NCBI GenBank assembly: GCA_028693355.1
Contig: JAQUVM010000002.1
Location: forward strand, 7,418 to 71,417
Source of the DNA: Burkholderiales bacterium
GTDB lineage: Bacteria; Pseudomonadota; Gammaproteobacteria; Burkholderiales; UBA11063
Length of the DNA stretch: 64,000 nucleotides
Direction: 5' to 3'
Part shown: positions 12,181-30,852 of the stretch, one piece after another
How positions within the stretch are numbered: the stretch's first letter is position 1
Layout of the letters: each line of letters starts with the position of its first letter
Notes under the pieces: model-generated
The model's database searches: none
Seen by the model: the letters and a program-made list of their open reading frames with translations, nothing else
Told to the model about the DNA's origin: nothing
Made by a program: the position numbers and the translations under genes

Positions 12181-13264
12181 ATTTAGGAAGTTTATTAATT
12201 ATATATTAAACTTTGATTACCTCTTAATCTGTTTCATATTGATCTTATTTGTTTGTAATATTTTTACTCAATATTCCGCAAATGATCAGTTTATGGATCG
12301 CATATATAATGATATAGCATATCTTGGCATTTCATTTGTAATCATGCTGATTATTGCAAATATTAAGATAAGTAAAATCAGGTCAATGGCTATACCTTTA
12401 TATATTATTTCATTAATTTTAATTGCTCTTGTGTTAGTAATGGGTGTTAAGGTCAATGGCGCTAGACGTTGGTTAAATATAGGCATTCGTATTCAACCTT
12501 CTGAGTTATGTAAAATATCTGTTCCTTTATTGGTGGCATATGTATTGTCTATTAAAAATACTGTTTTAGGTTACAAAGATTATTTCGTTGGTTTTATAAT
12601 TATTGCAATACCATTTTTAATGATAGCTAAGCAGCCTGATTTAGGTACTGGAATATTAGTTTTTTTATCTGGTTTTTTTATATTATTTATTGCAGGACTA
12701 CCATGGAAAGTTATTATATATAGTATTATTTCTTTAATAGTTGCAAGTCCACTAGCATGGAAGTTTTTATTACATGACTATCAAAAGCATAGAATTTTGA
12801 CTTTAATAGATCCACAATCAGATCCTCTTGGGAAGGGATATCATATTATTCAAGGCATTATTGCCATTGGTGCTGGTGGGCTTTTCGGGAAAGGTTATTT
12901 GCACGGTACGCAGGTTCATTTAAACTTTATTCCTGAAAAACATACTGATTTTGTGATTACAGTTATTGCTGAAGAGTTTGGTTATATAGGCGTTGCATGT
13001 ATATTAACATTATATTTATTGATTGCTCTTAGAGGGCTTAGGATCATGCGTCTAGCTGATGGGATATTTGCTAAGACTCTGGCTGGAAGTATAACACTAT
13101 CTTTTATTTCATATGTATTAATTAATATGGGTATGGTAGGTGGCATATTTCCAGTTGTTGGTGTACCATTACCTTTAATTAGTTATGGTGGAACGGCAAC
13201 CATCGTACTTATGGTTGGTTTTGGAATTTTACTGTCTATAGATCGTAAACGCCGCTACTCATAA
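12158..13264 (+). CDS. rodA: Rod shape-determining SEDS protein RodA
   Basis: GARRWL; IQPSELCK; KQPDLGT; FIPEKHTDF; LPLISYGG. Confidence 0.97.
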   Translation: MSNLTPSKFRKFINYILNFDYLLICFILILFVCNIFTQYSANDQFMDRIYNDIAYLGISFVIMLIIANIKISKIRSMAIPLYIISLILIALVLVMGVKVNGARRWLNIGIRIQPSELCKISVPLLVAYVLSIKNTVLGYKDYFVGFIIIAIPFLMIAKQPDLGTGILVFLSGFFILFIAGLPWKVIIYSIISLIVASPLAWKFLLHDYQKHRILTLIDPQSDPLGKGYHIIQGIIAIGAGGLFGKGYLHGTQVHLNFIPEKHTDFVITVIAEEFGYIGVACILTLYLLIALRGLRIMRLADGIFAKTLAGSITLSFISYVLINMGMVGGIFPVVGVPLPLISYGGTATIVLMVGFGILLSIDRKRRYS

Positions 13265-13389
13265 TGCTCTTAGACTTTACTTCATATACTTTGTCGTCAT
13301 TCAAAAATTGCTTCTTATGTACAATTTGTACATGTAGGCGCAATTTTTATCATGACTTCGTGTCTATGAAGAAAATTCGTTGAGCATTA
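13262..13389. repeat. Multi-stem palindromic element, copy A (128 bp)
   Basis: Nested stems taatgctc/gagcatta, cttcata/tatgaag, gtcat/atgac, aaaaattgc/gcaattttt, tgtac/gtaca; left end is the rodA TAA. Confidence 0.85.
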
Positions 13390-13430
13390 GTTTCTGTATT
13401 AAGTATTTATCATTAATTGATAGATAATTA

Positions 13431-14270
13431 CTAACTTAAATCAGAGAATGTTTTCATGGCTAATTGTAAGTCATTCCATGCCTCACGTTTAGCATCTGGA
13501 GTTCTCAGTAAATATGATGGGTGATATGTTGCAATAGTTGGTATTTCATTGTTAAATTTATGTATAGTTCCACGCAATTTACCAACTGCATTTGTGGTTG
13601 ATAAAATAGTTTGAATAGCAAATCTGCCAAGCAGAATAATGACTTTTGGTTGAATGAGTTCAATCTGGTTTAATATGTAATTTTTACATAGTTCAATTTC
13701 TTGTGTAACTGGATTTCTATTTTGTGGTGGGCGGCATTTAATTATATTGGCTATATAGACATCAGTTTCCGGATTTAATTTCATAGCACGTATCATTTTA
13801 TCTAATAATTGTCCAGATGCACCAACAAATGGCTTACCCTGTATATCCTCTTGTTCTCCAGGAGCTTCGCCAATAAACATCCATTTAGCATTACGGCTGC
13901 CACGTTCTATAACTACATTTTTTCTATCATGGCATAAGTCACAATCATGACAATTTTTGGCTTGATATTCTAGTTCTTCCCAAGTTAATTTTGATGATGA
14001 TTTTTGTGTATGTTGTACCACCATCTTATTTATTTGTACGACATGATCTTTTACAGCTTCTACTGATTCATGATTAATAAGTTTAGCTGGTTGATTTGTA
14101 GCAATTACTTTAATAGTGTCCAAAGTATTATTTAATGTCTTGCTTTCACTGTGATTTAATGTGCTTAGATTATCATAGTCTATCTGTAGATTAATTGAGT
14201 CTTTTAATTCAGATAGTTTATTTTTATCAGGAATCCATAATGTTTTAAATAGTAAATCAACAGTTTTCAT
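13431..14270 (-). CDS. udg: Uracil-DNA glycosylase family 4 (4Fe-4S)
   Basis: CHDCDLC; FIGEAPGEQED; PFVGASGQLL; IKCRPPQNRNP; TYHPSYLLR. Confidence 0.93.
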   Translation of the reverse strand: MKTVDLLFKTLWIPDKNKLSELKDSINLQIDYDNLSTLNHSESKTLNNTLDTIKVIATNQPAKLINHESVEAVKDHVVQINKMVVQHTQKSSSKLTWEELEYQAKNCHDCDLCHDRKNVVIERGSRNAKWMFIGEAPGEQEDIQGKPFVGASGQLLDKMIRAMKLNPETDVYIANIIKCRPPQNRNPVTQEIELCKNYILNQIELIQPKVIILLGRFAIQTILSTTNAVGKLRGTIHKFNNEIPTIATYHPSYLLRTPDAKREAWNDLQLAMKTFSDLS

Positions 14271-14725
14271 GATAAATCAAAACCTATTAAAGTTTTTGCC
14301 ATTAAAATAGCATCAATACTTTTACCTTCTACACGATAATAATTCTTACGCTTACCAATTATATTGAATCCTAACTTGTGATATAAATTAATTGCATTTG
14401 TATTGCCTACCATAACCTCAAGAAATATTTGTGTGGCTTTTTGAGCTATAACTAAATTACATACGTGATTTAATAATTGATATCCATACCCATTACCTTG
14501 AGACTCTTTTTCTATAACGATTTGTAAAATTTCTGCTTCATCTATAACTAAGCTATATGCACATATGCCAATTAATTTATTATTTATACTGTAGCCAACA
14601 AAATAATGATGCGGGTTTTTAAATGATTCTTCATAATCATGTAATGACCAAGGGGTTTTATTTGATTCTTTGTCAATATTTACAATTATATTTATTTCAT
14701 CTTTAGTTAAGTAATGGAAATTCAT
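14267..14725 (-). CDS. rimI: Ribosomal protein S18 alanine N-acetyltransferase
   Basis: GNAT fold: EAEIL, QGNGYG, FLEV, AINLY..GF, RKNYY; between tsaB and udg. Confidence 0.9.
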   Translation of the reverse strand: MNFHYLTKDEINIIVNIDKESNKTPWSLHDYEESFKNPHHYFVGYSINNKLIGICAYSLVIDEAEILQIVIEKESQGNGYGYQLLNHVCNLVIAQKATQIFLEVMVGNTNAINLYHKLGFNIIGKRKNYYRVEGKSIDAILMAKTLIGFDLS

Positions 14726-15411
14726 TTTTGCTTATTCAATAATTGTTCTTCGAGACTTAGAGCAACCTTATCTCTTAAATAGAGTAATTCTGCTTCTTGA
14801 GTCTTACATGGTGTAATTAACCCAGTATTAATTATTTTAAATAAAGTATCAGCAGTTGGATATCCGCTTTCTAAGTATGTAATTTGATCGAATAAATCTG
14901 GTTTAATATTTTGTTTATATAGATTCCATCCATTACCAATAACGACGCTATTATTGGAATATGATGTAATTGTTTCATTTATTTGCGCTGGATTAATTAA
15001 TATTGGATTAACAGCATAGCATAGTAATTGTTTATCAAAAATAGCAATATATAGTTGCCCAAGTTTAGCATCTAATGCAATGATATTATAACGATGAGAC
15101 GTACTAATACTATAAGCATATATTTGAAACATATGAATAGGGTATAACTGGCAGTTAATAGAGTAACTTAATGCTAATGAAGTGCTAAGTCCTATTCTTA
15201 GGCCTGTAAATCCACCAGGTCCTGCATTATAAGCAATTGCAGATATATCATTTATACCAATGTTTGCCTCGATTAGCAAATTATGAATGGTGGGCAAAAT
15301 AAATTCTGACTGTTTATTGCCAATCTTATTTTGGTATTTATATATTTTATCTGTAGTTTGTATTGCTAATGATAAATATTCATTGGCGGTATCAATTGCT
15401 AAAATATTCAT
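14722..15411 (-). CDS. tsaB: tRNA t6A modification protein TsaB (start probably ATG 15411)
   Basis: MNILAIDTA; AYNAGPGGFTGLRIG; LDAKLGQLY; ELLYLR. Confidence 0.92.
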   Translation of the reverse strand: MNILAIDTANEYLSLAIQTTDKIYKYQNKIGNKQSEFILPTIHNLLIEANIGINDISAIAYNAGPGGFTGLRIGLSTSLALSYSINCQLYPIHMFQIYAYSISTSHRYNIIALDAKLGQLYIAIFDKQLLCYAVNPILINPAQINETITSYSNNSVVIGNGWNLYKQNIKPDLFDQITYLESGYPTADTLFKIINTGLITPCKTQEAELLYLRDKVALSLEEQLLNKQK

Positions 15412-15497
15412 TACTTTTATTACTCTTTGTCTTTCGAATGTATCGGTTGTCATACTTCAAAAATATTTTTCATGGACTTATATCTGTATGTATTGTA

Positions 15498-16412
15498 CTA
15501 CAGGCGCTCACCTAACATATCAAGCATTGCTAATTCAGGTTCTGGATTTAGCGTAAATACTTGTATAGAGCTGGATTTTTTATGTAGTTTTGTCGTATTA
15601 CTTTTGTTTGGTTTATTACTAATGCTTATACCAATCCACTCGAGATGTTTACAGATCTGCTCACGTAGATTAGCATTATTATATGTTTCATTACCACTAA
15701 ATATTAAAATATCTAGTCCGCCAATTTCAATAGCCGCGTTACAAACTTTATTAGCAATTACTTTACTAGATATTAATTGTTCTGATACATATGGAATTAA
15801 CTCAAAAGAGTAATTAATCAGGTTTTTTATGCCAGTTATAAAATGTGCAGATTTGTCCGTATGGATTATTATCACTTTTGCTTTAGTAGTTTTTTTGGTG
15901 GTAATGTCACTGAGTTTATGAGTTATACTTTTAAAGTTTAAGCATTTGCTACTAATTAGTGAATTATTTTTATCATTGAAACTATCATCAAAACAAGCAT
16001 AATGTTTAGTATTACTAAAAAATGTAACTAATTTATGAGATAAAGATAACTCGTTATTTTGAGTTAATGAATTATATATTTGACCAAGTTTATTAATAGA
16101 GTCATCATTTATTCGGCTAATTTCGCCAAATTCACGATATCCATTGCTAATTTTATGTAATATTATATCAGGAGTATTAATTAGATCTGCTATATGCGTA
16201 ACAATGATTTCATAATTCATGGTTTCTTGAAAATCTTGTTGTAATACTTTAGAAATGATGTTTTTTTTACCAATAATGCGTTTTGTTGCAATGAGGTTGT
16301 TTCTATCTTCATAAATATTATGAGTCTCTGTCAAAATAAACTTCTTACCATATACTTTATAAAGATTATAAGCTATATAATCATCATGATGGTAAATGCT
16401 TAAAACTATCAA
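15498..16412 (-). CDS. Degenerate acetate kinase-like (ASKHA fold) protein
   Basis: LHKISNG, YACFDDSF, GGLDILIFSG, LREQICKHLEWIGI and VFTLNPEPELAM resemble AckA segments; catalytic motifs eroded; 304 aa versus about 400; TTG start with AAGGA RBS. Confidence 0.7.
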   Translation of the reverse strand: MIVLSIYHHDDYIAYNLYKVYGKKFILTETHNIYEDRNNLIATKRIIGKKNIISKVLQQDFQETMNYEIIVTHIADLINTPDIILHKISNGYREFGEISRINDDSINKLGQIYNSLTQNNELSLSHKLVTFFSNTKHYACFDDSFNDKNNSLISSKCLNFKSITHKLSDITTKKTTKAKVIIIHTDKSAHFITGIKNLINYSFELIPYVSEQLISSKVIANKVCNAAIEIGGLDILIFSGNETYNNANLREQICKHLEWIGISISNKPNKSNTTKLHKKSSSIQVFTLNPEPELAMLDMLGERL

Positions 16413-16454
16413 AACTATTCCTTTTATAAAAAATCTGAATTGTATTGTATACTA

Positions 16455-16463
16455 ATTATAGCA
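16455..16463 (-). promoter_or_regulatory. Extended -10 promoter of the ackA-like gene
   Basis: TGCTATAAT on the minus strand, 42 bp upstream of the start. Confidence 0.55.
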
Positions 16464-16480
16464 TTTATTGCAACGCACCA

Positions 16481-17638
16481 TTACAAAAATGTCTCGAGTA
16501 GATTATTTAAAAAGTCTTTTCCTTTTGTTGTTGGAATAACACTATTGCCATCTAATAATATATAGCCAGTTTGCTGTGCTTGTAATAGCTGAGGAATAAT
16601 TTGACTAAATGCTTGACCCGTAGTTTCTGTAAAGAGTGTTGTTTTAAATCCACCTGTTAAGCGTAATGCATTCATCATAAATTCAAAGGGTAAATCTTTA
16701 GTAGCAATTTCATTACTTGTTTGTATGTGTTGTCCAGTTAGAATTGATTCCATATACTTAGCAGGATGTTTATGACGCATTTGGCGAATTATGCGATCAT
16801 GAAAGCTAATTTTTCCATGAGCTCCAGCACCAATTCCAAGGTAATCGCCAAACTCCCAATAGTTTAAGTTATGGCGAGCATTAAATCCTTTTTTGCAATA
16901 GGCAGATGTTTCGTAACGTTCATAGCCATTATTTTCTAATGTTTCAATAATTTCATCTTGCATTTGAAAGCAAATATCATCATCTGGAATACCTTTGGGA
17001 GTGCGTTTCGCAAATTCTGTATTTGGTTCAATAGTAAGATTATAGGCTGAAATATGCGTTGGTTGATAGTCAATAGCTCTTTGAATATCATATACAGCAT
17101 CTTCAATAGATTGATTGGGCAGACCATAAATAATATCTAAATTGAAGTTATCAAAGCAGTCTTTAACTTTTTTGATCGCTAAATCTGTTTCATGGCTATT
17201 ATGAATGCGACCAAGATTTTTAAGTTGTACATCATTGAATGATTGAACCCCAAGTGAAATGCGATTAACTCCTGCATCACGATACTCTGCAATATATTGT
17301 TGCTCAACTGTGCCAGGGTTTGCTTCCATAGTTATTTCTGTATATGGCGATAGATTATAAAGCATCCGTAGATTAGTTATTAGTCGATCAATAGCCTTAC
17401 CACTAAATAAACTTGGGGTGCCACCGCCAATAAATATAGTCTGGATTTGTCGCCCCCAGATTAGTGGGAGTGTTGATTCTGCATCACGAATCAGAGCATC
17501 AATATACTGCTCTTCTGGTATCTCATTATTTTTTGTAGCGTGTGAATTAAAATCACAATATGGACATTTTTTTACGCACCAAGGTATATGGATATATAAG
17601 CTAAGTGGTGGTAGTTGTGTTAGGTTTATATTCGGCAT
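16481..17638 (-). CDS. hemW: Radical SAM heme chaperone HemW (start probably ATG 17638)
   Basis: LYIHIPWCVKKCPYCDFNS (CxxxCxxC); IFIGGGTPS; EITMEANP; RISLGVQSF; GIGAGAHG. Confidence 0.93.
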   Translation of the reverse strand: MPNINLTQLPPLSLYIHIPWCVKKCPYCDFNSHATKNNEIPEEQYIDALIRDAESTLPLIWGRQIQTIFIGGGTPSLFSGKAIDRLITNLRMLYNLSPYTEITMEANPGTVEQQYIAEYRDAGVNRISLGVQSFNDVQLKNLGRIHNSHETDLAIKKVKDCFDNFNLDIIYGLPNQSIEDAVYDIQRAIDYQPTHISAYNLTIEPNTEFAKRTPKGIPDDDICFQMQDEIIETLENNGYERYETSAYCKKGFNARHNLNYWEFGDYLGIGAGAHGKISFHDRIIRQMRHKHPAKYMESILTGQHIQTSNEIATKDLPFEFMMNALRLTGGFKTTLFTETTGQAFSQIIPQLLQAQQTGYILLDGNSVIPTTKGKDFLNNLLETFL

Positions 17639-17940
17639 GTTTTCTTTGGTTTTATTCTTTCGATATTTAAAATTTAAGCAAAAATACAAATTATACGGTA
17701 ATATATTTTGAGCTTTTAATTATATCAGGTTTCTTTTTTTATATGGTCTTATGGTTAAATATATTTCTATGATGATGTTATAGTATTATTATCTTATCAG
17801 TTATTAACATTGTGCATGTTCTGATTAATATAGTGCTAAACTTACTAAAGTATTCTAAATTATTAGATTAGTATTATTATCTATGATGTTTATAATTTGT
17901 GATGTTCACAGCTAATACTGATATAAATAAGGAAATTGTT

Positions 17941-19224
17941 ATGGAAAAGAAAAAAGCTGTTATTGTTGGAGGTGGATTTGCGGGCTTGTCTGCAGCTTGG
18001 GAGTTACGTAATAGTAATTATCAGGTAACATTGCTAGATAAAAGAAATTTTAGCCTTTTTCAACCATTACTATATCAAGTTGCTACTACCAGTCTAACCG
18101 AAACAGATGTTTCTTTTACTTTACGAAATGCTATAACTGGAGCAAAAAACATCTCAATATTTAATGTTGAAGTTACAGATTTTAATCTTGAGAAGAAGCA
18201 GGTTATTGCAAATAAGGAGATTTTTGATTACGATACTTTAATAGTTAGTAGCGGTGTTACACATAATTATTTTGGTAATCAACACTGGGCAGAATTTGCT
18301 CCAGGATTAAAAACACTGGAAAATGCTCTTGAAATACGTAATAAAATTTTATTAGCATTTGAGAGAGCAGAATTAGAAAAAGATATTGAAAAGAAAAAAA
18401 CATTATTACGTTTTATTATTATTGGTGGTGGTGCAACTGGGGTTGAACTTGCAGGTTCTTTATGTGAATTAGCTCATAGTACATTACGCAATGAGTTTCA
18501 TAATTTTACTTCTAATGATATTGAAATAATTTTGATTGAAGGATCTGAAAGGATTTTATCAACCTATGATCCTTCATTATCAAAAAAAGCTCAATTACAA
18601 TTAGAAAAATTGGGTGCTAAAGTTATACCCCGTAGTAGGGTTATCGATATTCAAAATGATCTTGTAAGAATATCATCCGAGTTTGGAGAAAAAACCTTTT
18701 ATACTAATACGGTAATTTGGGCAGCTGGGATGAAAGCAACTGCAATTGCTTTTAAGATCGCTGAAAAAACAGCCGCAAAACAAGATGGTCAAGGTAGAGT
18801 TTTGGTTAATTCTGATTTAAGTATCCCTAATTATCCAGATATATTTGTTTTAGGTGATATTGCAAATGTAATAGATTTAAATAATCAACCACTTCCAGGC
18901 ATTGCTCCTGTAGCCATGCAAGAAGGGAAGTATATTGGAAAACTGCTAAAAAATAAAATTAATGGTATGAAAATGAAGCCTTTTAAATATAATGATAAAG
19001 GTAATATGGCAGTTATTGGTAAAAATGCTGCAGTTGCAGAGCTTAAATCATTTAAATTTTCTGGTTATCCAGCGTGGCTGCTATGGGTTGCTGTACATAT
19101 CTGGTATTTAGTTGGCTATGATAATAAATTAATGATAATGATAAAGTGGGCATGGACATATTGGACATCTAAGCGTAGTGGTAGATTAATTCTTCACGAA
19201 AAAGATAGCCATGCCGACTCATAA
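17941..19224 (+). CDS. ndh: Type II NADH:quinone oxidoreductase (start probably ATG 17941)
   Basis: VIVGGGFAG and IIGGGATGVELAG Rossmann motifs; FQPLLYQVAT; IFVLGD; APVAMQEG. Confidence 0.9.
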   Translation: MEKKKAVIVGGGFAGLSAAWELRNSNYQVTLLDKRNFSLFQPLLYQVATTSLTETDVSFTLRNAITGAKNISIFNVEVTDFNLEKKQVIANKEIFDYDTLIVSSGVTHNYFGNQHWAEFAPGLKTLENALEIRNKILLAFERAELEKDIEKKKTLLRFIIIGGGATGVELAGSLCELAHSTLRNEFHNFTSNDIEIILIEGSERILSTYDPSLSKKAQLQLEKLGAKVIPRSRVIDIQNDLVRISSEFGEKTFYTNTVIWAAGMKATAIAFKIAEKTAAKQDGQGRVLVNSDLSIPNYPDIFVLGDIANVIDLNNQPLPGIAPVAMQEGKYIGKLLKNKINGMKMKPFKYNDKGNMAVIGKNAAVAELKSFKFSGYPAWLLWVAVHIWYLVGYDNKLMIMIKWAWTYWTSKRSGRLILHEKDSHADS

Positions 19225-19232
19225 TTTTTAAT

Positions 19233-20156
19233 TTATAAGCGAAGAATTTCTGCGGATTCAATGATCGGCTTATCTAATTCTGGGTGCCATATTACGTAAC
19301 GAATTTCTTCGCTAGAATTTAGACCAACTACTTTATAGTTGCCATCTTTATCTATCGCGTGTATTGTAACTTCATCTAAATACCCAGTTTTTAAATCTGC
19401 TAAGTCTTGTGCCGCCTCATATACAGCATCAACTACACTTAAGCCCATTTTTAGATAAAGTACTACACTACGAGCAGTACCCGCTCGAATACTCATTTCA
19501 CCTGTATGTGTACATGCACATGCGCCATAGCGACTATCTGCGTAACTACCAGCACCGATGATTGGGCTATCACCTAGACGGCCTGGGTATTTCCATCCCC
19601 AACCAGAGGTGCTAGTTGCTGATGAAATACGCTTTTCATGATCTATACTCATATAGATAGTAGTATCAAACATTTTTTCAGGATCAATGGCTTCGCTTTT
19701 TATATCTAGAAGTCTAACATTAGGGAAATCTTCTTTTTGTTTTGAAGTTAGTGCATTATCTAAATGTTTATGCCAAGCATTTATAGATATTTCAGTTTCA
19801 TTTTTATTTGTGATTGCACCAATTTCATGGGCAAATCTTTCTGCTCCAACACCCACTAGCATTTCATGGTTGATGTCAGTCATAATTCGATAGGCTACTT
19901 CAACTGGATGTAAATAACCGCGGAGTGCACCAACAGAACCTGTGCGGCGTGTATTGCCATCCATAACTGACGCATCTAGTTGTAATTCACCTAAAATATT
20001 AGGCCATGAGCTCATACCTACTGTATGTATATCTGGATTTGCTTCAACAATTTTTATACCTTCAATAATAGAGCGTAGCCCATTTTCTTTTTTTGCTAAT
20101 AGTTGTGCAGATAGCTCTGTACCAGAGCGCCCCTCATAGTTTGCCAATAACAACAT
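19233..20156 (-). CDS. N4-(beta-N-acetylglucosaminyl)-L-asparaginase / type 2 asparaginase (Ntn hydrolase); start probably ATG 20156
   Basis: WPNILGELQLDASVMDG; D-T autoproteolysis site (FDTTI); ATSTSGWGWKYPGRLGDSPIIGAG; ACTHTGE. Confidence 0.88.
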   Translation of the reverse strand: MLLLANYEGRSGTELSAQLLAKKENGLRSIIEGIKIVEANPDIHTVGMSSWPNILGELQLDASVMDGNTRRTGSVGALRGYLHPVEVAYRIMTDINHEMLVGVGAERFAHEIGAITNKNETEISINAWHKHLDNALTSKQKEDFPNVRLLDIKSEAIDPEKMFDTTIYMSIDHEKRISSATSTSGWGWKYPGRLGDSPIIGAGSYADSRYGACACTHTGEMSIRAGTARSVVLYLKMGLSVVDAVYEAAQDLADLKTGYLDEVTIHAIDKDGNYKVVGLNSSEEIRYVIWHPELDKPIIESAEILRL

Positions 20157-20278
20157 ACTCTTTGTCTTTCTATCATGAACGTTGTCATACTTCAAAAAAT
20201 ATTCCTCATGTACTTAAGTGTACACATTGTCATATTTTTTATCAGTATTCCTAGTTCACAATAGAAATACTGCGAGTA
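20156..20278. repeat. Multi-stem palindromic element, copy B (123 bp)
   Basis: Stems tactc/gagta, tttctat/atagaaa, tgaac/gttca, atact/agtat, aaaaaatat/atatttttt, tgtac/gtaca. Confidence 0.85.
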
Positions 20279-20294
20279 CTTATTCTGTTTGTCT

Positions 20295-20422
20295 ATATAC
20301 TCTTCACCTTTGAGCTTTGTACTGTGTCATACTTCAAAAAATATTCCTCATGTACCAAGTGTACATGTCGTCATATTTTTTATCAGTACTCCTTGCTCAA
20401 AGCCCAAATATTTTGAGTATAT
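20295..20422. repeat. Multi-stem palindromic element, copy C (128 bp), tandem with B at about 142 bp period
   Basis: Stems atatactc/gagtatat, tttgagc/gctcaaa, tact/agta, aaaaaatat/atatttttt, atgtac/gtacat; core 20325-20393 nearly identical to 20183-20252. Confidence 0.9.
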
Positions 20423-20593
20423 TTTAATTTTAATATAATATTTTGATATTATTATAGCTAACTTCAGATTAAAGTGTACAATGAAATGAGCGACGACACC
20501 TATAAATAATAGGTTAGGAGCGAATAAGGCAGTACAGTTTAAAAATGAGTTAGTTATATCAATGTCTTTAAGCATAGTAAATGCAGTTGATGC

Positions 20594-23329: not shown

Positions 23330-24918
23330 TGCGTAAATTTATTTCAATGGATTTTTTTCAAAATTTAGGTAAAGCATTTATGCTACCAGTTGCATTACTA
23401 TCTGCTCTTGGGTTGATGCTTGGTATTGGATCTGCTTTAATGACCCCACAATTAGTTGAGGTAATACCGTTTTTGGGTAATGGTGTTATTGTATTTATAG
23501 CTAAATTTTTAGCCATGACTGGAGCATTTGGTTTTCAAAATTTACCTGCATTATTTGCAGTAGCGATCCCAATTGCATTAGCTAAGTATGAAAAAGGCGT
23601 GGCAGGGTTTGCAGGGTTAGTTGGTTTTTATATGATGCATAACTCAGCTAATTTTATGTTAATTCAACAAAATTTGCTAGCTGATAAGAGTAGTTTAATA
23701 AATAATGGGCAAACTTTTATATTAGGTGTTCAGACTGTTGATATGGGAGTATTAGGTGGAATTATAGCAGGTTTAATTGTTTATAATTTACATCGTAAAT
23801 ATTATAAAGTTCAATTACCAGATGCGCTATCTTTTTTTTCTGGTGCTAGATTTGTACCAATAATTACTGCTATCACTATGAGTTTGTTCGGTTTGGCATT
23901 ACCATTTATTTGGCCACCAATAGCTCATTTAATTAATAGTGCTGGGCGTTCTTTAGTATCAACTGGTATTTTTGCTCCATTCTTTTTTGGTATGGGCGAA
24001 AGATTATTATTGCCATTTGGTTTACACCATATATTAGTTGCATTAATTAGGTTTACTCCAGCTGGTGGTGAAATGTTAGTGAATGGTCATATGGTTTATG
24101 GAGCATTAAACATATTTTATGCCCAATTGGCAGATCATACGACAGGGCAATTTAATCCAATGGCGACACAATTTTTATCTCAAGGCAAAATGCCAACCTT
24201 TTTATTTGGTTTACCAGGTGCTGCATTAGCTATCTATCATACGGCCAAACCTGAAAATAGATCACAAATAAAAGGAGTTTTGATTAGTGGTGTAGTTGCT
24301 TGTGTAGTTGCAGGAATTACTGAGCCATTAGAGTTTTTATTTTTATTTACGGCACCTTATTTGTATGTGATTCATGCTGTTTATACAGGATTAGGCTTTA
24401 TGATGGCATCATTGCTTCATATTACTATTGGTAATACTGATGGCAATTTGATTGATTTAGTTGTGTTTGGCGTTTTACAGGGAACAAAAACTAAATGGTA
24501 TTTTGTTTTACCATTGGGTATTGTATGGTTTTTATTGTATTATTTTACGTTTAAATTAGTCATTTTAAAATTTAACTTGAAAACCTTAGGGCGCGAAGAT
24601 GAGGCCGTGCCAGATGCTGTTATAGGTGCAAGTGATAGTGCATTCTCAGATAAAAAAACTAATGATAGTGTAGTGCTAGATAAAAATAGCCAAGCAAATA
24701 TGATAATAGAGGCTCTTGGTGGACGCGATAATATAATATCAATAGATAATTGTTTAACTAGATTAAGAATCGTATTAAATGATATCGATTTAATTGATGA
24801 AGTTAAAATAAAGGCTACTAAATCACTTGGTATAGTAAAATTAAATAAACAAAATCTACAAGTTGTTTATGGAGTACAGGTTCATTTGATTAAAGCTGAA
24901 TTAGATAAGATATTATAA
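23329..24918 (+). CDS. PTS EIICB component, glucose/maltose (MalX-like) family
   Basis: LGKAFMLPVALL; GERLLLPFGLHH; QGKMPTFLFGLPGAALA; GITEPLEF; EIIB DNCLTRLR with active Cys. Confidence 0.93.
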   Translation: MRKFISMDFFQNLGKAFMLPVALLSALGLMLGIGSALMTPQLVEVIPFLGNGVIVFIAKFLAMTGAFGFQNLPALFAVAIPIALAKYEKGVAGFAGLVGFYMMHNSANFMLIQQNLLADKSSLINNGQTFILGVQTVDMGVLGGIIAGLIVYNLHRKYYKVQLPDALSFFSGARFVPIITAITMSLFGLALPFIWPPIAHLINSAGRSLVSTGIFAPFFFGMGERLLLPFGLHHILVALIRFTPAGGEMLVNGHMVYGALNIFYAQLADHTTGQFNPMATQFLSQGKMPTFLFGLPGAALAIYHTAKPENRSQIKGVLISGVVACVVAGITEPLEFLFLFTAPYLYVIHAVYTGLGFMMASLLHITIGNTDGNLIDLVVFGVLQGTKTKWYFVLPLGIVWFLLYYFTFKLVILKFNLKTLGREDEAVPDAVIGASDSAFSDKKTNDSVVLDKNSQANMIIEALGGRDNIISIDNCLTRLRIVLNDIDLIDEVKIKATKSLGIVKLNKQNLQVVYGVQVHLIKAELDKIL

Positions 24919-24983
24919 ATTGATAATTATGTTTAAAGTTTGATTCAAGTATAATAACCTATAAAATAAAAAAAGAGAAAATT

Positions 24984-25934
24984 ATGAAAAAAGTATTATT
25001 TATTGCAGATCCACTTAGTGGAATAAAAATTACTGGTGATTCAACTTATTTGATGCTTATTACGGCTTATGATTTGGGGTACGAATTATATGTTGCCGAA
25101 TCTAAAGATTTATTTGCTATTGGCAATCATGCATATGTCAATGTAGAGAAGCTACAATTATCACATGGTGTTAAAGATATTCATTCAACACAGAATTGGT
25201 ACACTGTAACTGATAAATTTAGTAAGTATTCATTGACAAATTTTGATGCAGTTTATGTGCGTAATGATCCGCCTTTTAATATGGAATACTATTATTTAAC
25301 CCAAATACTAGATTTAGCCGTAAATTTAGGTGTTAATGTAGTTAATAATCCTACGCTATTACGTAATTGTAATGAAAAATTAACTATATTAAATTTCCCA
25401 CATCTAATTACCCCTACATTAGTTGCTAAAGATAAAGCTACAATTTTAGAATTTATTAAAGAACAAGGTGTATGTGTTGCTAAACCGATTGATTTGATGG
25501 GCGGGCGCGGTATTTTTAGAATAGCAGCTGATGACCCGAATCAAAATGCTATTTTGGAAAGCTTAACAGATTATTATACTCAGACTATTATGGTACAAAA
25601 ATTTATTCCAGAAGTTGTAAATGGAGATAAGCGTATTTTTATCATAGATGGTGAGGTTGTTGAATATTGTTTAGCTCGTATTCCCCAAAATGGTGAAATT
25701 CGCGGAAATTTAGCTGTAGGTGGTCGTGGTGAAGTGCAGAAATTAACAGATAGCGATAAGACGATAGCTAATGAAGTAGCTAAATGGCTAAAAAATAAAG
25801 GGATTATGATTGCAGGACTTGATGTGATTGGTACTTGTTTAACAGAGGTAAATATTACTAGTCCAACATCTATGCAGCAAATTTATCGTGAGAGCGGGAT
25901 TAATGTGGCTAGATTAATTTTAGAGAAAATCTAA
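24984..25934 (+). CDS. gshB: Glutathione synthetase
   Basis: RNDPPFNMEY; CNEKL; KPIDLMGGRG; GDKRIF; RGNLAVGGRG; EVNITSPT. Confidence 0.96.
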   Translation: MKKVLFIADPLSGIKITGDSTYLMLITAYDLGYELYVAESKDLFAIGNHAYVNVEKLQLSHGVKDIHSTQNWYTVTDKFSKYSLTNFDAVYVRNDPPFNMEYYYLTQILDLAVNLGVNVVNNPTLLRNCNEKLTILNFPHLITPTLVAKDKATILEFIKEQGVCVAKPIDLMGGRGIFRIAADDPNQNAILESLTDYYTQTIMVQKFIPEVVNGDKRIFIIDGEVVEYCLARIPQNGEIRGNLAVGGRGEVQKLTDSDKTIANEVAKWLKNKGIMIAGLDVIGTCLTEVNITSPTSMQQIYRESGINVARLILEKI

Positions 25935-25974
25935 CTATATGGTTATGTTGGAGATTTTTATGTGAAAATTTTTT

Positions 25975-27333
25975 ATGGATAACATAATGATGAGATTTGT
26001 TTCTAATTTACATAGTAGTATGATAGTTTCACTAGTTCTATTTGCACCAATTTTTTATCTTGGAATAGGCGGTAAATATCCTTGGGTATTATTAGGTAAA
26101 TACGGCATTGGCTTAGGTATGATAAGCTTTTTTATCTTAACGTTATGCTTTTTTCTGATGTCTTTTATTCGTTATGGCAATGTTATTAATGAAACACTCT
26201 TTTACAAGATATTCAATTTCAATTTAATATTAAGTATTTTGGTAGCTATTGCTTATGATTTGATTCAATACAAGCATTTTTTACGTTTTGCTTATCAACA
26301 ACCAACGATGTTATATGTTTTAAGTATACTTGCCATCATTGTAATCTTTTTAAGTATTAAATTAGAAAAGACACGATGTAATGCTCTTTGGATATTTGTG
26401 ATTTGTGCGTCATATAGTAGTTTACATTATCTGGGAAGCATTTATTATTTTCCTTTGACCGAAGCTCGCTCTGATATGCTACCTGCAATATCATTATCTA
26501 TACAACATTTTTATGATGGGTTTAGCCCATATCATAAAAGTATAGAATCTATAGGAGTACCACCATACTTACCTTTTACTATGATCTCGTTTATACCTGC
26601 TTATTTATGGAATATTGATTTTAGGTTTATTACATTAGTTTATTGGATTATAAGTATGGTATTAATTGCTTATAAGATTAATAAATTTACTATGGAACAG
26701 GTTTGTGCAATATGTTTATTCGTTATTAATCCGTACTTTTTAATGCGTCATGAAATGTATTATCAAATATTTCTATTAGAAATGATTGTAATTTGTTTAT
26801 ATTTACAATACTTTAACTACGCTGGCAAAGTTATTATTTTTGGGGTTTTTATTTCTACTTTACAGTTTGCTTGGATACTAATGCCATTTATAATATTAGC
26901 TGATAGTAAATCTAAATCTGAGGCTATTACAAAATTTATTTTATCTACTGCTATTGGTTTTTTAATCTCTCTTATATATATTGGAATAAATCAAACCAAT
27001 TTAGCTGATTTTATAAAAGCAATGTTTTTACATAAAGAATATAATTCACCTTATTCTTCGGATATTACTTTTGGATTATCAACAGTTTTTTATTTTGCCA
27101 AATCTCAAGTATTACTATATATCATGCAGATACTATCTTGTCTCAGTATAATATTATATTCAATATATTTGTACATAGTAAAAGGGAATAGGTCTCACAA
27201 TATGTATTTATCAATGAGTGCAATATGTTATATGATATTTATGACAACTAATTACTTCATCGAAACTTATTTATTAGCGCCACTTATTCTATACTTTATT
27301 GTGTCATATAAAAATGAAAACTCAACATATTAA
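25975..27333 (+). CDS. Polytopic membrane protein, possible GT-C (GT87/DUF2029-like) glycosyltransferase
   Basis: About 11-12 hydrophobic segments; loop ARSDMLPAI...FSPY...PPYLPF resembles GT-C acceptor loops. Confidence 0.4.
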   Translation: MDNIMMRFVSNLHSSMIVSLVLFAPIFYLGIGGKYPWVLLGKYGIGLGMISFFILTLCFFLMSFIRYGNVINETLFYKIFNFNLILSILVAIAYDLIQYKHFLRFAYQQPTMLYVLSILAIIVIFLSIKLEKTRCNALWIFVICASYSSLHYLGSIYYFPLTEARSDMLPAISLSIQHFYDGFSPYHKSIESIGVPPYLPFTMISFIPAYLWNIDFRFITLVYWIISMVLIAYKINKFTMEQVCAICLFVINPYFLMRHEMYYQIFLLEMIVICLYLQYFNYAGKVIIFGVFISTLQFAWILMPFIILADSKSKSEAITKFILSTAIGFLISLIYIGINQTNLADFIKAMFLHKEYNSPYSSDITFGLSTVFYFAKSQVLLYIMQILSCLSIILYSIYLYIVKGNRSHNMYLSMSAICYMIFMTTNYFIETYLLAPLILYFIVSYKNENSTY

Positions 27334-28372
27334 ATTTTTGGATTCAATTCGTGGTATTGCTGCAGTAAGTGTTTTAATATTTCACTTATATCAAATTGAT
27401 GGTAGTGAACGTAATATTTATAGTGAGTTTAAATTATTTGCAGCTGGCCACGAAGCTGTAATATTATTTTTTGTTTTAAGTGGCTTTGTCCTGAGTAACT
27501 CAATAAATAATAGTCAAACAATATTTATATATTCAAAGTATATAATAAAAAGATTATTTAGGATAATGCCAGTATATTATTGTTCTATGCTCCTTGCAAT
27601 AGTCTTTTATATTATTTATTCTCCAAAACCAATTTCGTATTTAAGTGATTGGTTTAATAACTTGTTGCCAAGTATTAAATATTTAGATTATAAGTTGTTA
27701 ATATCAACAATAATTTTAGCGCCATCAAATAAATTAAATGGTGTGGTATGGTCATTGTCTTATGAGCTTGTAATTTCAGTTATATTTTTGCCTACGCTTA
27801 TTGTTGCTACTCAAAAATATTTTAAGTTGTCTTTAACAGTTATGGTAACCATAGCAATTATTTTTCTCTCTTTTCCTCCACATAAATTTATTAATGCTTT
27901 ATTATTTTATACTGTATTTTTTTATCTAGGATTATTGATGTCGATAAAGAGAGTTGCTATTAAGAATATTTGGTTTATTCCAATGTTTTTGTTATTATAT
28001 TTTAATAGATTTTGTTTATACCAAGTGGTAAATTATAATGAAGCAATTAGAGATTTGATGACCGCGTTAGGAAGTTTTGGGTTAATTAGTATCATTTATT
28101 ATAATAATGGAGTAATTAAAAAAATATTGGAGTTTAAACTATTTACTTTTTATGGAAATATATCGTATTCATTATACTTATTGCATTTGCCAATTATGTA
28201 TATATGTGTGTATATATTTATACAATATATAGATATTTTTTATTTAAAAATCATGATTTTCTTGTTTACTAGTTTTTTTGCATTTATTTCTTATAAGTAT
28301 ATTGAATGTAGGTTTATTCAATTTGGATTATATTTTAGTAACTGTTTAATAACTCAGTCTGGTAAAAAATAA
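27314..28372 (+). CDS. Acyltransferase_3 family O-acyltransferase (OafA-like; start probably ATG 27314)
   Basis: LDSIRGIAAVSVLIFH; AVILFFVLSGF; KRLFRIMP; WSLSYE; GNISYSLYLLH. Confidence 0.92.
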   Translation: MKTQHIKFLDSIRGIAAVSVLIFHLYQIDGSERNIYSEFKLFAAGHEAVILFFVLSGFVLSNSINNSQTIFIYSKYIIKRLFRIMPVYYCSMLLAIVFYIIYSPKPISYLSDWFNNLLPSIKYLDYKLLISTIILAPSNKLNGVVWSLSYELVISVIFLPTLIVATQKYFKLSLTVMVTIAIIFLSFPPHKFINALLFYTVFFYLGLLMSIKRVAIKNIWFIPMFLLLYFNRFCLYQVVNYNEAIRDLMTALGSFGLISIIYYNNGVIKKILEFKLFTFYGNISYSLYLLHLPIMYICVYIFIQYIDIFYLKIMIFLFTSFFAFISYKYIECRFIQFGLYFSNCLITQSGKK

Positions 28373-28463
28373 ACGTAACTGGATTTATACGATATATTAT
28401 GTAAAGATCTTCAATAGTAATTTTTTATTGATATAAAAATCATGTGATTGTAAAAATAATATT

Positions 28464-28487
28464 AAACTGCTTGAAAAAGCAGTTTTT
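28464..28487 (+). terminator. Intrinsic terminator upstream of hslU, containing a sigma32-like CTTGAAA
   Basis: aaactgctt-GAAA-aagcagttt perfect stem running into a T-run. Confidence 0.55.
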
Positions 28488-28527
28488 GCACATATATATA
28501 AACAAATAAATTTTTAAATGAGTAGGA

Positions 28528-29862
28528 ATGAAGATGGATTTAACTCCTCGCCAAATAGTAGCAGAATTAGATAAAAATATTATCGGCCAGAATGATGCTA
28601 AAAAAGCTGTAGCAATAGCTCTTAGAAATCGTGTTCGTCGCCAAAAAATTGATGAACCATTAAGAAGTGAAATTACCCCAAAGAATATCTTAATGATTGG
28701 ACCAACAGGCGTTGGTAAAACGGAAATTGCTCGTCGTTTAGCTAAGCTTGCAGGAGCTCCGTTTATAAAAATTGAGGCAACAAAATTTACTGAAGTTGGT
28801 TATGTAGGTAAGGATGTTGATTCTATTATTCGTGATTTAGTTGAAGTTGCAGTAAAAGACGCTCGTGAGATTGCTCGAGATAGCAATAGAGATAAAGCTA
28901 AATTAGCTGCAGAAAATCGTATTTTAGATGTTTTATTACCACCAGCACGTGATACGTTTGGTGATACAGCTCAAGCCGATGATGCTCCAGAAAATTCTAC
29001 ACGTGAACGTTTTCGTAATATGTTACGTGATGGTAAATTAGATGATAAAGAAATTGAAGTAGAAGTGGCTCAAGCAAAAGCTCAATCAGTGTTGATGGGA
29101 CCTCCTGGAATGGAAGAGTTAACTAATCAACTTCAAGGCATGTTTGAAAATGCTGGAGAAGGCAAGAAGAAAAAACGTAAATTAAAAGTAAAAGATGCTT
29201 TTAAAATTGTTATTGATGAAGAAGCTGGTAAACTTGTTAATGAAGATGAGTTACGTCAAAATGCATTACAAAATGTTGAGCAAAATGGAATTGTATTTTT
29301 AGATGAAATTGATAAGGTAGCTATAAAAAGTGGTAATAGTAGTGCCGAAGTTTCACGCTCTGGAGTGCAACGAGATTTACTTCCTTTGGTTGAGGGTACA
29401 ACAGTATCTACCAAATATGGAATGATAAAAACAGAACACATCTTGTTTATTGCCTCAGGTGCATTTCATGTAGCAAAACCATCTGATTTACTACCAGAAT
29501 TGCAAGGACGTTTTCCTATCCGTGTTGAACTAAAATCTTTGACAGTAGATGATTTTAAGCGTATTTTAACGGAAACTAATGCGAGCTTAACAGAACAATA
29601 CAAAGCTCTTTTAGCTACGGAAAATTTAGATTTACAGTTTTCTGTAGATGGTATATCTAAACTGGCAGAAATAGCGTTTTCTGTCAATGAAAAAACCGAA
29701 AATATTGGCGCAAGACGTCTGTATACAGTCATGGAAAAGCTTCTGGAAGGCCTCCTTTTTGATAGTGAAGGTGTAAATTCGGTATCAATTGATAGTGCTT
29801 ATGTTACTAACATACTTGGTGAAATATCTGCATCAGAAGATTTATCTCACTACGTATTATAA
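28528..29862 (+). CDS. hslU: ATP-dependent protease ATPase subunit HslU
   Basis: [18 protein letters not shown]; EVGYVG pore loop; VFLDEIDK; ENIGARRL; DLSHYVL C-terminus. Confidence 0.98.
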
Positions 29863-29887
29863 AAAAAATGGTATTTTGTCGGAGATG

Positions 29888-29896
29888 TGGTAGAAT
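29888..29896 (+). promoter_or_regulatory. Extended -10 promoter of the PPIase gene
   Basis: TGGTAGAAT 34 bp upstream of ATG; GGAG RBS. Confidence 0.55.
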
Positions 29897-29930
29897 GCTA
29901 CATATTTTGAAAATTTATAGGAGTATTTAG

Positions 29931-30725
29931 ATGAAAAAAATTATTACTGCATTATTATTAAGTAGTGCTTTTATTGTAGCTAACGCAGATACAGTGTATG
30001 TTGATGGTAAAGCGGTTAATCAAAAAATTATTGACCAGGCAATGGCTCAAATCAAAAAAAATCCGATGGCTGCTCAACAAGCTAATAACCCTCAATTCAA
30101 AAAAGAAATGTTGCAGTCAATTGGTATGCAACAAGCTATTTTAGCTGAAGGAAATGCACAAGGATTAGATAAATCTCAAGCTTATCAAGATAAGTTAAAT
30201 GAAATCAAACCAATGATTTATGCTCAGATTTTACAAGATAAAGCATCAGCTAAGCCAATCACAGATGCTCAAGTTAAAGCTAAGTACGACCAAATGAAAG
30301 CTGCTGCTATGAAACAGCAACAGTATGATGTATCTCATATCTTAGTTAAAGATCAAAAAACTGCTAATGATATTGAAGCTCAATTGAAAAAAGGTGCTAA
30401 GTTTGCTGATTTAGCTAAAAAATATTCAATTGATCCAGGTTCAAAAGCTAATGGTGGTGAGTTAGGGTTGTCAGATGGTTCTAACTATGTTCCTGAGTTT
30501 ACTGCTGCAATTAAAACTCTTAAAAAAGGTCAATACACAACTACACCGGTTAAAACTCAATTTGGTTACCATATTATTAAATTGAATGATATTAAAGCTG
30601 GTTCAGCTGCACAAATTCCTGCATTTGATAAAGTAAAAGATCAAATTAAACAAGAGTTACAAATGGAACAAACTAAAGCTTTCTTTGATAGTGTTAAAGC
30701 TAAACATAAAGTAGAAGTTAAGTAA
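29931..30725 (+). CDS. Periplasmic PpiC-type (parvulin) peptidyl-prolyl isomerase
   Basis: Signal peptide (VANA-D); VSHILV; FADLAKKYSIDPGSKANGGELG; VKTQFGYHIIK. Confidence 0.93.
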   Translation: MKKIITALLLSSAFIVANADTVYVDGKAVNQKIIDQAMAQIKKNPMAAQQANNPQFKKEMLQSIGMQQAILAEGNAQGLDKSQAYQDKLNEIKPMIYAQILQDKASAKPITDAQVKAKYDQMKAAAMKQQQYDVSHILVKDQKTANDIEAQLKKGAKFADLAKKYSIDPGSKANGGELGLSDGSNYVPEFTAAIKTLKKGQYTTTPVKTQFGYHIIKLNDIKAGSAAQIPAFDKVKDQIKQELQMEQTKAFFDSVKAKHKVEVK

Positions 30726-30728
30726 CGA

Positions 30729-30852
30729 GATTCTTTGACTTTGGATTTTATACGTTGTTGGAGCAATAAAAAATTTTCCTTATGTAGTATAACTACACTG
30801 CGTCTAATTTTTTATTGCTACGCCTAGTCTAAAAAACCAAATTCTGCGAATC
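30729..30852. repeat. Multi-stem palindromic element, copy D (124 bp)
   Basis: Stems gattc/gaatc, tttgg/ccaaa, agcaataaaaaatt/aattttttattgct, tgtag/ctaca; shares TCCTTA loop and outer loops tttgac/ttctgc with copy B (tttgtc/tactgc). Confidence 0.8.

Follow-up and report, generated by a model that had tools for sequence, protein, structure and literature searches.

What are the four long palindromes that lie between the genes in a 64,000-nucleotide stretch (hereafter, the window) of the 2.3-Mb, 31.5% GC genome of an uncultured bacterium, whose likewise uncultured family belongs to the same order as Neisseria? The original prediction regarded them as 123-128 bp members of a candidate new family resembling ERIC or RPE. 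According to our analysis, they are copies of a ~125-nt hairpin-forming miniature mobile element (MITE), and the best explanation, which we regard as highly probable, is a non-autonomous hairpin MITE representing a divergent low-GC branch of a superfamily that includes the Correia elements (CREE/NEMIS) of Neisseria. All four predicted copies are real and align with a mean column identity of 75%, and a fifth, comprising only the 5' half, had been missed:

13262-13389, plus strand: copy A, full element, in the same sense as rodA.
15420-15487, plus strand: 5'-half copy (model positions 3-68), antisense to both flanking genes, an ackA-like ORF and tsaB.
20155-20279, plus strand: copy B, full element, antisense to the minus-strand flanking genes.
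20297-20420, plus strand: copy C, full element, in tandem with copy B.
30728-30853, plus strand: copy D, full element, in the same sense as a gene for a PpiC/PrsA-type peptidyl-prolyl isomerase.

The spacer of ~17 nt between copies B and C (20280-20296; 16 nt, 20279-20294, in the original prediction) looks like a degraded fragment of a 5' arm (ttattctgtttgtct).

Copies A-D each form, on either strand, a single long hairpin with imperfect pairing; the energies lie between -28 and -45 kcal/mol, and comparison with dinucleotide-shuffled sequences gave z-scores between -4.7 and -9.2. The architecture described from these copies was reproduced by the RNAalifold consensus of 60 genomic copies, which consists of a terminal stem, an internal loop, a TTT-started stem, an A-rich stem and a short tip stem, with asymmetric internal loops. 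The compensatory pairs quoted in the prediction (tgtac/gtaca at the tip against TGTAG/CTACA in copy D, the variants of the A-rich stem, and the covarying termini) are genuine, and compensatory double changes occur in 27 of the 34 helix pairs among the 60 copies, a count in which related copies register lineages and not independent events. Paired cells amount to 91.8%, versus 76.9% in shuffles; none of 500 shuffles matched the observed value on any of five measures, and the covariation score of 0.426 falls to 0.03-0.10 once the 3' partners are displaced by 1-3 columns. The terminal stem of 6-8 bp is variable in sequence and covaries, while the unpaired segments are conserved, as had been claimed, with four internal-loop blocks kept across families: TACGnnGTTG, TCCTYA, GCGTC and CCTWGTC. 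Given covarying helices and conserved unpaired segments, the folded single strand, and not the sequence of the arms, appears to be the feature that is maintained, in agreement with the original prediction of a dispersed, non-autonomous repeat, and the four loop blocks set on covarying helices are likely recognition features.

A scan of the genome with nhmmer returned 97 matches, 83 of them near full length, i.e. about 100 copies of an element that measures 124-130 bp at full length. They are dispersed beside core genes (e.g. rodA, tsaB and ppiC), and about a quarter are antisense to both neighbouring genes. The elements also interrupt assembly, as two contigs, C41 and C62, terminate within one copy. 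Roughly half of the species in the genus carry the family and the others lack it; among 36 further species, 23 gave a match (at least eight copies in 17, only one or two in six) and 13 gave none. Sites are almost never common to different species, and at least ten that are occupied in relatives are empty in this genome. Within each of two relatives, G020 and G024, the dispersed copies are, by inspection, ~90-95% or more alike and form species-specific subfamilies, whereas those in the present genome are old (maximum identity 90%, median 67%). Since the occupied sites differ among species and two relatives carry young, near-identical dispersed copies, we conclude that the element is mobile, with young copies seen in these relatives and not in the genome studied here. 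The original prediction suggested a search for target duplications, and no consistent one was found: no direct repeat of 2-4 bp flanks 20% or more of 55 copies in any register, and there are no long duplications. TA is found on both sides of ~9 of 23 young copies (from G020, G024 and G010), where this self-complementary dinucleotide is indistinguishable from an extension of the stem; Correia elements are characterised by a TA duplication.

To which of the known systems does such an element belong? Its assignment to ERIC, RPE, REP/RAYT or the attC-type sites of integrons is, in our opinion, very improbable. ERIC elements, which E. coli genomes carry, are reported to have TA flanks and a target duplication. 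The resemblance to them, which the original prediction noted, lies in a ~125-nt, rod-like imperfect palindrome; however, the family consensus has no blastn match (word size 11, E <= 0.01) in 5,426 complete E. coli genomes, which refutes identity with ERIC at the level of sequence. RPEs are often inserted in-frame within protein-coding genes, whereas only 3 of 82 copies of the present family are within a long ORF and all others are located between ORFs; this comparison sets the two apart by the genomic location of their copies. The attC sites share the conservation of structure over sequence, but the family has termini ATACTC...GAGTAT, no RYYYAAC/GTTRRRY core sites, and dispersed copies rather than cassette arrays. 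No Rfam family was matched in the 64-kb window. What remains in common with ERIC/IRU is the size (~127 bp), the imperfect palindrome, the intergenic location, co-transcription (putative in the present family) and the reported effects on mRNA stability (PMC3184786), while sequence similarity is absent and the hosts, Enterobacterales, are a different order.

The original prediction proposed a co-distributed HUH/TnpA(REP) partner, but the Y1/HUH transposase (PF01797) is not co-distributed with the element: within the genus, 5 of 19 species rich in the element and 4 of 13 species free of it have robust Y1_Tnp matches, and the present genome has only a 22-residue fragment. An origin from REP/REPIN with RAYT, or as an IS200/IS605-derived PATE, was therefore rejected. 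Another precedent is the RUP of Streptococcus pneumoniae, a ~107-bp hairpin MITE thought to be moved in trans by a transposase of the IS630 family (PMC2229807). The IS630-like insertion sequences of the genus have TA-flanked ends, TACTG...CAGTA or ...GAGTA, which resemble the MITE ends TACTC...GAGTA over ~7 nt only, so that the likeness to RUP/IS630-Spn1 is limited to the hairpin MITE form and ~7 terminal bases. DDE_3 occurs in 15 of 19 species of the genus that are rich in the element versus 8 of 13 that lack it, and IS630/DDE_3 across the order in 13 of 42 element-positive versus 66 of 209 element-negative genomes, with no association in either comparison; derivation from IS630/Tc1-mariner was rejected on account of the short end likeness and this distribution. 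In this genome, neither a multi-copy transposase ORF nor a split or autonomous form of the element was found.

The closest relatives were found within the order itself. Correia/NEMIS elements are classic MITEs, the first to be described in bacteria (1986-88), and the Correia repeat is a conserved terminal inverted repeat of 26-27 bp, TATAGTGGATTAAC/AAAAA..CCGGTACGG or ..TCAGGACAA. A model trained on the copies of this genome only (R1) aligns, over positions 1-128, with six true 107-bp CREE of Neisseria at E values of 8.6e-5 to 1e-3 in 30 kb, the opposite strand giving 0.4 or worse. The tip GUACUAUUUGUAC in Neisseria matches GUACUAUAUGUAC in the family, and the blocks GUACGGCGUUG and CCUUGUCC are common to both. 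The core blocks of CREE appear in the same order and spacing (GTACGGCGTTG versus GTACGTTGTC, with the tip GTACTATTTGTAC versus GTACTATATGTAC), accompanied by TTCGTC and by CCTTGTCC versus CCTAGTCY, and one Neisseria variant has the same CCTTATGTAC-loop-GTACACGGCG as the family. CREE and the present elements each consist of one long hairpin, which has a defined orientation and TATA-type termini; they are of similar size (105-157 bp in CREE, 124-130 bp here), mostly beside genes, and present in hundreds (CREE) or about one hundred (this genome) copies; both have one strand without stop codons (PMC2229807). Intermediate forms were detected in four further families of the order (E ~1e-9, filter-off search), and with a broader model, members of the superfamily were recognised in 42 of 251 genomes from the order, representing 22 of 130 genera and at least 18 families.

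Judging from these sequence comparisons, the element is homologous to the Correia/NEMIS elements of Neisseria but divergent from them, i.e. a new branch of a known kind. This bears on two expectations of the original prediction. The element is not unusual for its lineage, as the host belongs to the same order as Neisseria, and the novelty, which a match to a described repeat was expected to remove, is reduced and not removed, since the match is remote (E ~1e-4), the 26-bp Correia repeat is absent and only the core blocks are common. In a pattern search, that repeat (TATAGTGGATTAA...) gave no match in this genome, and it is absent from all sampled genera of the order but one (the Neisseria-type genomes G139, G226 and G087). 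Of the CREE ends, the family keeps only the TATAC-type termini and the inner GTACG block; unlike CREE, it has an additional A-run stem (AAAAAATAT/ATATTTTTT), and it differs also in its low GC content and host family. The papers examined treat Correia elements as a feature of Neisseria, a full-text search for "Correia-like" elements gave no match, and the homologue reported here resides in an uncultured genus of a different family of the same order. No transposase is known for Correia elements, whose mode of movement has not been determined (PMC2649163).

A distinctive property of the family is its placement. In 56 of 64 copies the 5' end of the element is no more than 3 nt from an ORF boundary, usually a stop codon, against a chance expectation of ~7.5 of 64, and the 3' end is as close in one (sign test, p = 1.7e-12). 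Among long ORFs reading toward the 5' end, 41 of 49 stop at offsets -6 to 0, whereas 25 ORFs that approach from the 3' side have stops scattered from -82 to -4. Typically, the 5' arm begins 0-3 nt past the stop codon of a co-oriented gene, or overlaps it; less commonly it abuts the start codon of a gene on the opposite strand, and at the 3' end a spacer of ~50 nt is kept. The window illustrates both arrangements. The stop codon TAA of rodA (13262-13264) constitutes the outer 3 bp of the 8-bp terminal stem of copy A (TAATGCTC/GAGCATTA), and RodA ends in RRYS-stop, compared to RRY(T/R/H/K)xL-stop and similar in relatives without the element; this copy was found at the identical site in three other metagenome runs. 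The TAA of the isomerase gene (30723-30725) is 3 nt ahead of the stem of copy D. The 5' end of copy B overlaps the probable ATG (CAT, 20154-20156) of an isoaspartyl-peptidase/asparaginase-like gene, and that of the half copy is ~8 nt from the probable start codon of tsaB. The same polarity was observed in 31 copies from 11 other species. For CREE, in a 400-kb sample of Neisseria, such anchoring is weak and symmetric, and we found no description of it in the papers examined; the polar anchoring at gene ends is a new feature.

Could this pattern be merely what selection has left of random insertion into AT-rich DNA in both orientations, with the covariation produced by hairpin-templated mismatch repair rather than by structural selection? 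Such repair could yield covariation without selection, no specific target sequence was found at the insertion sites, and 6-8 of 28 CREE in Neisseria have a long ORF ending in or beside the terminal repeat. Moreover, in some filled alleles the upstream ORF is 1-3 codons shorter than in the empty allele, so insertion can hit the last codons, with the stop created at the junction. We nevertheless consider this explanation rather doubtful. Only 8 of 64 copies lie unattached between genes, where an insertion should do the least harm, and no ORF ends inside a reverse-oriented element, despite stops in all frames within 24-72 nt there. The bias is already seen in the young copies of G020 and G024, and the conserved mismatches and loops persist, which indiscriminate repair would erase.

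On the other hand, the hairpins might be kept at stop codons because they are useful to the host as cis-regulatory RNA (e.g. an mRNA stabiliser, an RNase III site, a partial terminator or a translational-coupling device), mobility being a mere route of arrival. That the element, in one orientation, begins directly at the stop codon agrees with this possibility. In contigs from three RNA-labelled metagenomic runs, the isomerase gene continues through its stop codon into copy D; these libraries may contain DNA, and the RNA-level data are assembled contigs, from which processing of the hairpin is not readable. Copies abutting a stop codon are better paired than antisense ones (89.8% versus 80.3%), and effects on mRNA processing have been reported for ERIC as well as for Correia/NEMIS (PMC2229807, PMC3184786, PMC2649163). 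Correia elements are known for co-transcription with adjacent genes and for hairpins processed by RNase III. However, a third of the species of the genus have no element and sites are almost never common to species, and therefore no gene depends on it. The asymmetry between G.U and A.C, which follows the orientation of the element and not the direction of transcription, argues against a purely RNA-level selection. G.U wobble is also rare, and about a quarter of the copies are antisense to both neighbours. We regard a host regulatory role as an improbable primary explanation.

Returning to the mobile hairpin as the preferred reading, a scenario may be envisaged in which an enzyme supplied in trans would copy the element by recognising the folded single strand, through conserved loops set on sequence-variable helices, and mutations in the arms would survive only if compensated. 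Insertion, or immediate survival, would be tied to the 3' ends of genes in one orientation, and the element would therefore be transcribed as a 3'-UTR or intercistronic hairpin starting at the stop codon. Where the element is inverted, its 5' end read as the reverse complement (GACAAAGAGTAT) would place a Shine-Dalgarno-like AAGAG shortly before the adjoining ATG. It is tempting to extend this scenario to an order-wide, Correia-type superfamily that moves via a folded single-stranded intermediate recognised by a structure-specific enzyme, with the insertion machinery itself, and not subsequent selection, setting the element in one orientation at the 3' edge of ORFs in the low-GC lineage, but this extension is speculative and, on balance, unlikely. 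If true, it would describe a transposon that reads gene ends.

For the annotation of these metagenome-assembled genomes, the elements show where dozens of genes truly end and, in some cases, begin. The patchy presence within genera, together with the recently active subfamilies, makes the question of mobilisation accessible to comparative genomics, by asking which gene tracks the element. The anchoring itself points either to an unusual choice of target or to a very stringent rule for the tolerance of a 125-nt hairpin in a compact genome.

The four palindromes of the original prediction (copy A, 13262-13389, behind rodA; the tandem pair B and C, 20156-20278 and 20295-20422; copy D, 30729-30852, behind a PpiC/PrsA-type isomerase gene) lie where they had been placed and show 75% mean column identity on alignment. 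Each folds into a single long imperfect hairpin whichever strand is considered, with energies between -28 and -45 kcal/mol and z-scores between -4.7 and -9.2 relative to dinucleotide-preserving shuffles. A repeat scan revealed a further, partial copy that the prediction had not listed, situated between the stop of an ackA-like ORF and the probable start of tsaB:

15420-15487, antisense to both flanking genes: 5'-half copy of the element

Rfam returned no match for the window at gathering thresholds. The window corresponds to positions 7418-71417 of contig C4 in an assembly of 2.31 Mb (169 contigs, 31.5% GC). An nhmmer search of this assembly, started from the four copies and run with one iteration, gave 97 matches in both orientations, 83 of them near full length (124-131 nt), with the consensus TTATACTCTTTGTCTTTCAATTTTGTACGTTGTCATACTTCAAAAAATATTCCTCATGTACTATATGTACATTTCGTCATATTTTTTATCAGTATTCCTAGTCTAAAATTGAAATACTTCGAGTATAT; the original observation was correct, and understated. 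The dispersed copies of this genome are old and diverse: their median pairwise identity is 67%, the closest dispersed pair reaches 90%, and near-identity is confined to tandem neighbours. At position 13336 copy A carries A, and contigs from three other metagenomes carry C. With C the loop block regains its conserved TCG, and the allele of the window is therefore the derived one. The end of contig C41 (63527-63584) and the start of contig C62 (1-70) hold complementary halves of one element; the assembly therefore broke at the hairpin tip, and the two contigs are probably adjacent.

According to RNAalifold, an alignment of 60 copies forms an unbranched rod of five helices and 34 pairs, of which 27 exhibit compensatory double changes. 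With the same structure imposed, paired cells amount to 91.8% vs 76.9% in column shuffles, double-change cells to 320 vs 90, and the covariation score to 0.426 vs 0.159; on every measure the observed value was reached by none of 500 shuffles. When the 3' partners are slid by 1-3 columns, 28-50% of cells remain paired and the covariation score drops to 0.03-0.10. Pairing in the terminal stem is at least 0.93 at model positions 4-8; it declines to 0.76 (position 3) and 0.42 (position 2) and is at background beyond. The subfamilies differ by paired changes, both in the tip (TGTAT/ATACA, TGTAG/CTACA or TGTAC/GTACA) and in the A-run stem (..AAGC/GCTT.., ..AGAC/GTCT.. or ..ATAT/ATAT..), which indicates that the covariation arises among propagating lineages, as would be expected if propagation required the hairpin. 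Filled orthologous sites, in which compensatory change could be followed in place, were not found; the four candidate pairs, at 62-70% identity, are no more alike than random pairs.

One-sided changes, e.g. from G-C to G-U, are rare in the helices, and the consensus strand has 63 A.C mismatches vs 34 G.T mismatches. Splitting this asymmetry by direction of transcription, as a test for selection at the level of RNA, gave no difference: the 2:1 bias is the same in copies sense and antisense to the neighbouring genes (Fisher p = 0.75). The bias therefore tracks the element rather than the transcript, and it leans towards DNA as the selected fold. The position of stop codons at the element's edge, described below, leans towards RNA.

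The anchoring of the 5' end at the ends of genes is a new feature of the element. On a crude long-ORF map (2,049 ORFs, 89% coding), the 5' end, as defined by the consensus orientation, adjoins an ORF boundary far above chance. Of the ORFs with at least 100 codons, 49 point at the 5' end, and the stops of 41 of them fall at offsets -6 to 0 relative to model position 3; the 25 that point at the 3' end have stops scattered from -82 to -4. A long upstream ORF ends at the boundary in 42 of the 75 copies analysed, with TAA as the stop in 31 of these; the first base of the stop falls at model position -2 (5 copies), -1 (8), 0 (10) or +1 (14). In about a dozen further copies the 5' end lies against CAT, the start codon of a gene on the opposite strand; antisense copies of this kind have, in the reverse complement of their 5' end (GACAAAGAGTAT), an AAGAG that precedes the ATG by a few nucleotides. 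For the 64 copies in intergenic spaces shorter than 400 nt, an ORF lies within 3 nt of the 5' end in 56 cases and of the 3' end in one, vs 7.5 expected under uniform placement (sign test p = 1.7e-12), and the median spacers are 0 and 52.5 nt, respectively. The same bias is seen in 31 copies from other species, young subfamilies included; in this set, 14 of 20 long ORFs have their stops at -7 to -2.

The consensus strand is pyrimidine-rich, with one frame open throughout and the two others open for about 100 nt. On the reverse strand every frame meets a stop within 24-72 nt, and yet not a single ORF terminates on it; the availability of stops thus does not explain the polarity. Comparison of filled and empty alleles shows the upstream protein flush with its counterpart at locus L090, and shorter by one residue at L151 and by three at L156; insertion therefore falls at the native stop or a few codons upstream of it, and the stop is carried by the junction. 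Two genes that overlap by a stop/start ATGA in the empty allele of L156 (C58:540-660 in our genome) are parted by the element in the filled one (genome G010), where the downstream protein starts three residues later behind a new GAAGGAA ribosome-binding site. The RodA protein encoded upstream of copy A terminates 2-3 residues ahead of most of its relatives.

We located orthologues of the genes flanking the 31 copies from 11 related species, and at least 10 of these sites are clearly empty in our genome (e.g. L144/C145, L151/C96, L156/C58, L090/C84 and L086/C83, given as locus/contig). The few copies that share a neighbouring gene have different junctions and are 62-70% alike, and therefore represent independent insertions. 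In two related genomes, G020 and G024, the subfamilies are species-specific and, by inspection of the printed sequences, their dispersed copies are about 90-95% or more alike, so that bursts of transposition are recent there. Empty alleles of copy A were not seen in other metagenomes; in the three metagenomes mentioned above the copy is in place. Head-to-tail arrays are common (B-C, and on contigs C150, C112, C16, C5 and C43), including the following arrays of 2-6 copies:

C150:20449-21813, head-to-tail array
C112:5631-5877, head-to-tail array
C16:14294-14545, head-to-tail array
C16:17297-18019, head-to-tail array

Neighbours within arrays are up to 100% identical, and in later copies the 5' terminal half-stem is replaced, e.g. 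by TTAATTAAG. The arrays suggest that copies either recombined unequally or were inserted repeatedly at the same place. At L149, L150, L142, L151, C145:7420 and C41:35136, full copies are followed 4-20 nt downstream by short remnants of another 3' terminus (..ACTTTGAGTA..); together with the arrays, these suggest that a newer copy inserted at the same gene end and that the older one is decaying downstream. Direct repeats of 2-4 bp were sought in every register and none was consistent, and a long target duplication, a possible source of the 3' spacer, scored no better than controls (mean 6.79 vs 6.91). Young copies agree in their 3' end, GAGTATAT, and vary at 5' positions 1-2; TA occurs on both sides in about 9 of 23.

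The class of the element, a non-autonomous structured repeat, was predicted correctly, but the relatives named for it were not: ERIC was rejected, as blastn gave no match in E. coli genomes, and the element groups instead with the Correia (CREE/NEMIS) repeats. A plasmid search gave no match. Correia is listed as a Neisseria element in reviews (PMC3184786, PMC2229807), and a full-text search of the literature for 'Correia-like' returned nothing. Among 401 genomes of the order, a pattern of published Correia repeat variants (PMC5039591) is limited to one genus (466, 307 and 20 hits in G139, G226 and G087) and has zero occurrences in our genome. A covariance model trained solely on our copies (R1, built from the 60-copy alignment) nevertheless aligns end to end, at model positions 1-128, with six true 107-bp CREE (E 8.6e-5 to 1e-3 in a 30-kb search; 0.4 or worse on the opposite strand). 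In a joint alignment with 34 CREE from 400 kb of G139, both groups share, in the same order, a TATA-type terminus, GTACG(G)CGTTG, the tip GTAC-5 nt-GTAC, (T)TCGTC/GCGTC and GCCT(A/T)GTC, and CCTTATGTAC-loop-GTACACGGCG is common to one Neisseria variant and our copies. Our family differs from the 107-bp CREE by one additional A-run stem and by the absence of the conserved 26-bp terminal repeat. A minority 107-bp variant in G139 (TATAGTGGATTAAAATTGCAATGATACGGCGTTGCCAACGCCCTTATGTAC..., e.g. 363268-363375, among loci L119-L138) has a tip region nearer to the window family than the common CREE tip.

The RodA proteins closest to ours reach no more than 78% identity and belong to metagenome-assembled genomes from water-treatment and freshwater sites, whose labels read uncultured Neisseria sp., Neisseriales or Burkholderiales. 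R1 detects the element in 23 of the 36 other species in the genus (in 17 of them 8 or more copies, up to the scoring cap, and only 1-2 in six) and in none of the remaining 13. Full-length but weaker matches come from four further families of the order, where copies of 28-43% GC lie within loci of 44-60% GC and share central blocks with our family. A broader model (R2) detects the superfamily in 42 of 251 genomes of the order, that is in 22 of 130 genera and 18 families, 12 of which contributed nothing to the model. The element is a remote, low-GC branch of an order-wide superfamily that includes Correia/NEMIS.

The HUH partner envisaged by the original prediction is not borne out, as Y1/HUH (PF01797) is unrelated to the presence of the element within the genus. 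An IS630 partner was likewise rejected. IS630 elements of the genus have TA-flanked ends (TACTG...CAGTA or ...GAGTA) that match the MITE over only about 7 nt, and IS630/DDE_3, though common in the genus, is not co-distributed with the element there (15 of 19 element-rich vs 8 of 13 element-free species). Nor is it across the order, where DDE_3 is found in 31% of genomes either way: 13 of 42 with the element and 66 of 209 without it. Multi-copy ORFs of our genome, considered as transposases, are all ordinary genes (e.g. outer-membrane protein, LysR, UvrC and MFS transporters), and neither a split element enclosing a gene nor an autonomous version was found there. A transposase gene of the IS630 family (DDE_3), degraded and interrupted by two in-frame TAA stops, lies at C62:11585-11926; the only other transposase-like sequence found is a 22-residue Y1 fragment on C166. 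For Correia, too, no mobilising enzyme has been reported (PMC2649163).

In three wastewater libraries labelled RNA-Seq, contigs cross the isomerase stop codon into copy D (30533-30788, 30543-30830 and 30553-30824, with at most one difference from the window). They are consistent with co-transcription of the gene and the copy, although, as assembled contigs, they may include DNA carry-over and their ends may be repeat breaks.

The best-supported mechanism is mobilisation in trans of a folded single strand, in which conserved loops would be displayed on covarying helices and insertion or survival would be tied to ORF ends in one orientation, an anchoring that may stem either from the machinery or from selection. 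In the 400-kb Neisseria sample, a long ORF ends in or beside the terminal repeat in 6-8 of 28 CREE, at either end, with TAG at position 3 and TAA at position 11. The other families show a similar tendency, their long ORFs often ending where the longer terminal repeats have their outer edge. Adjacency to gene ends may therefore be a trait of the whole superfamily, one that is extreme and one-sided in this genus.
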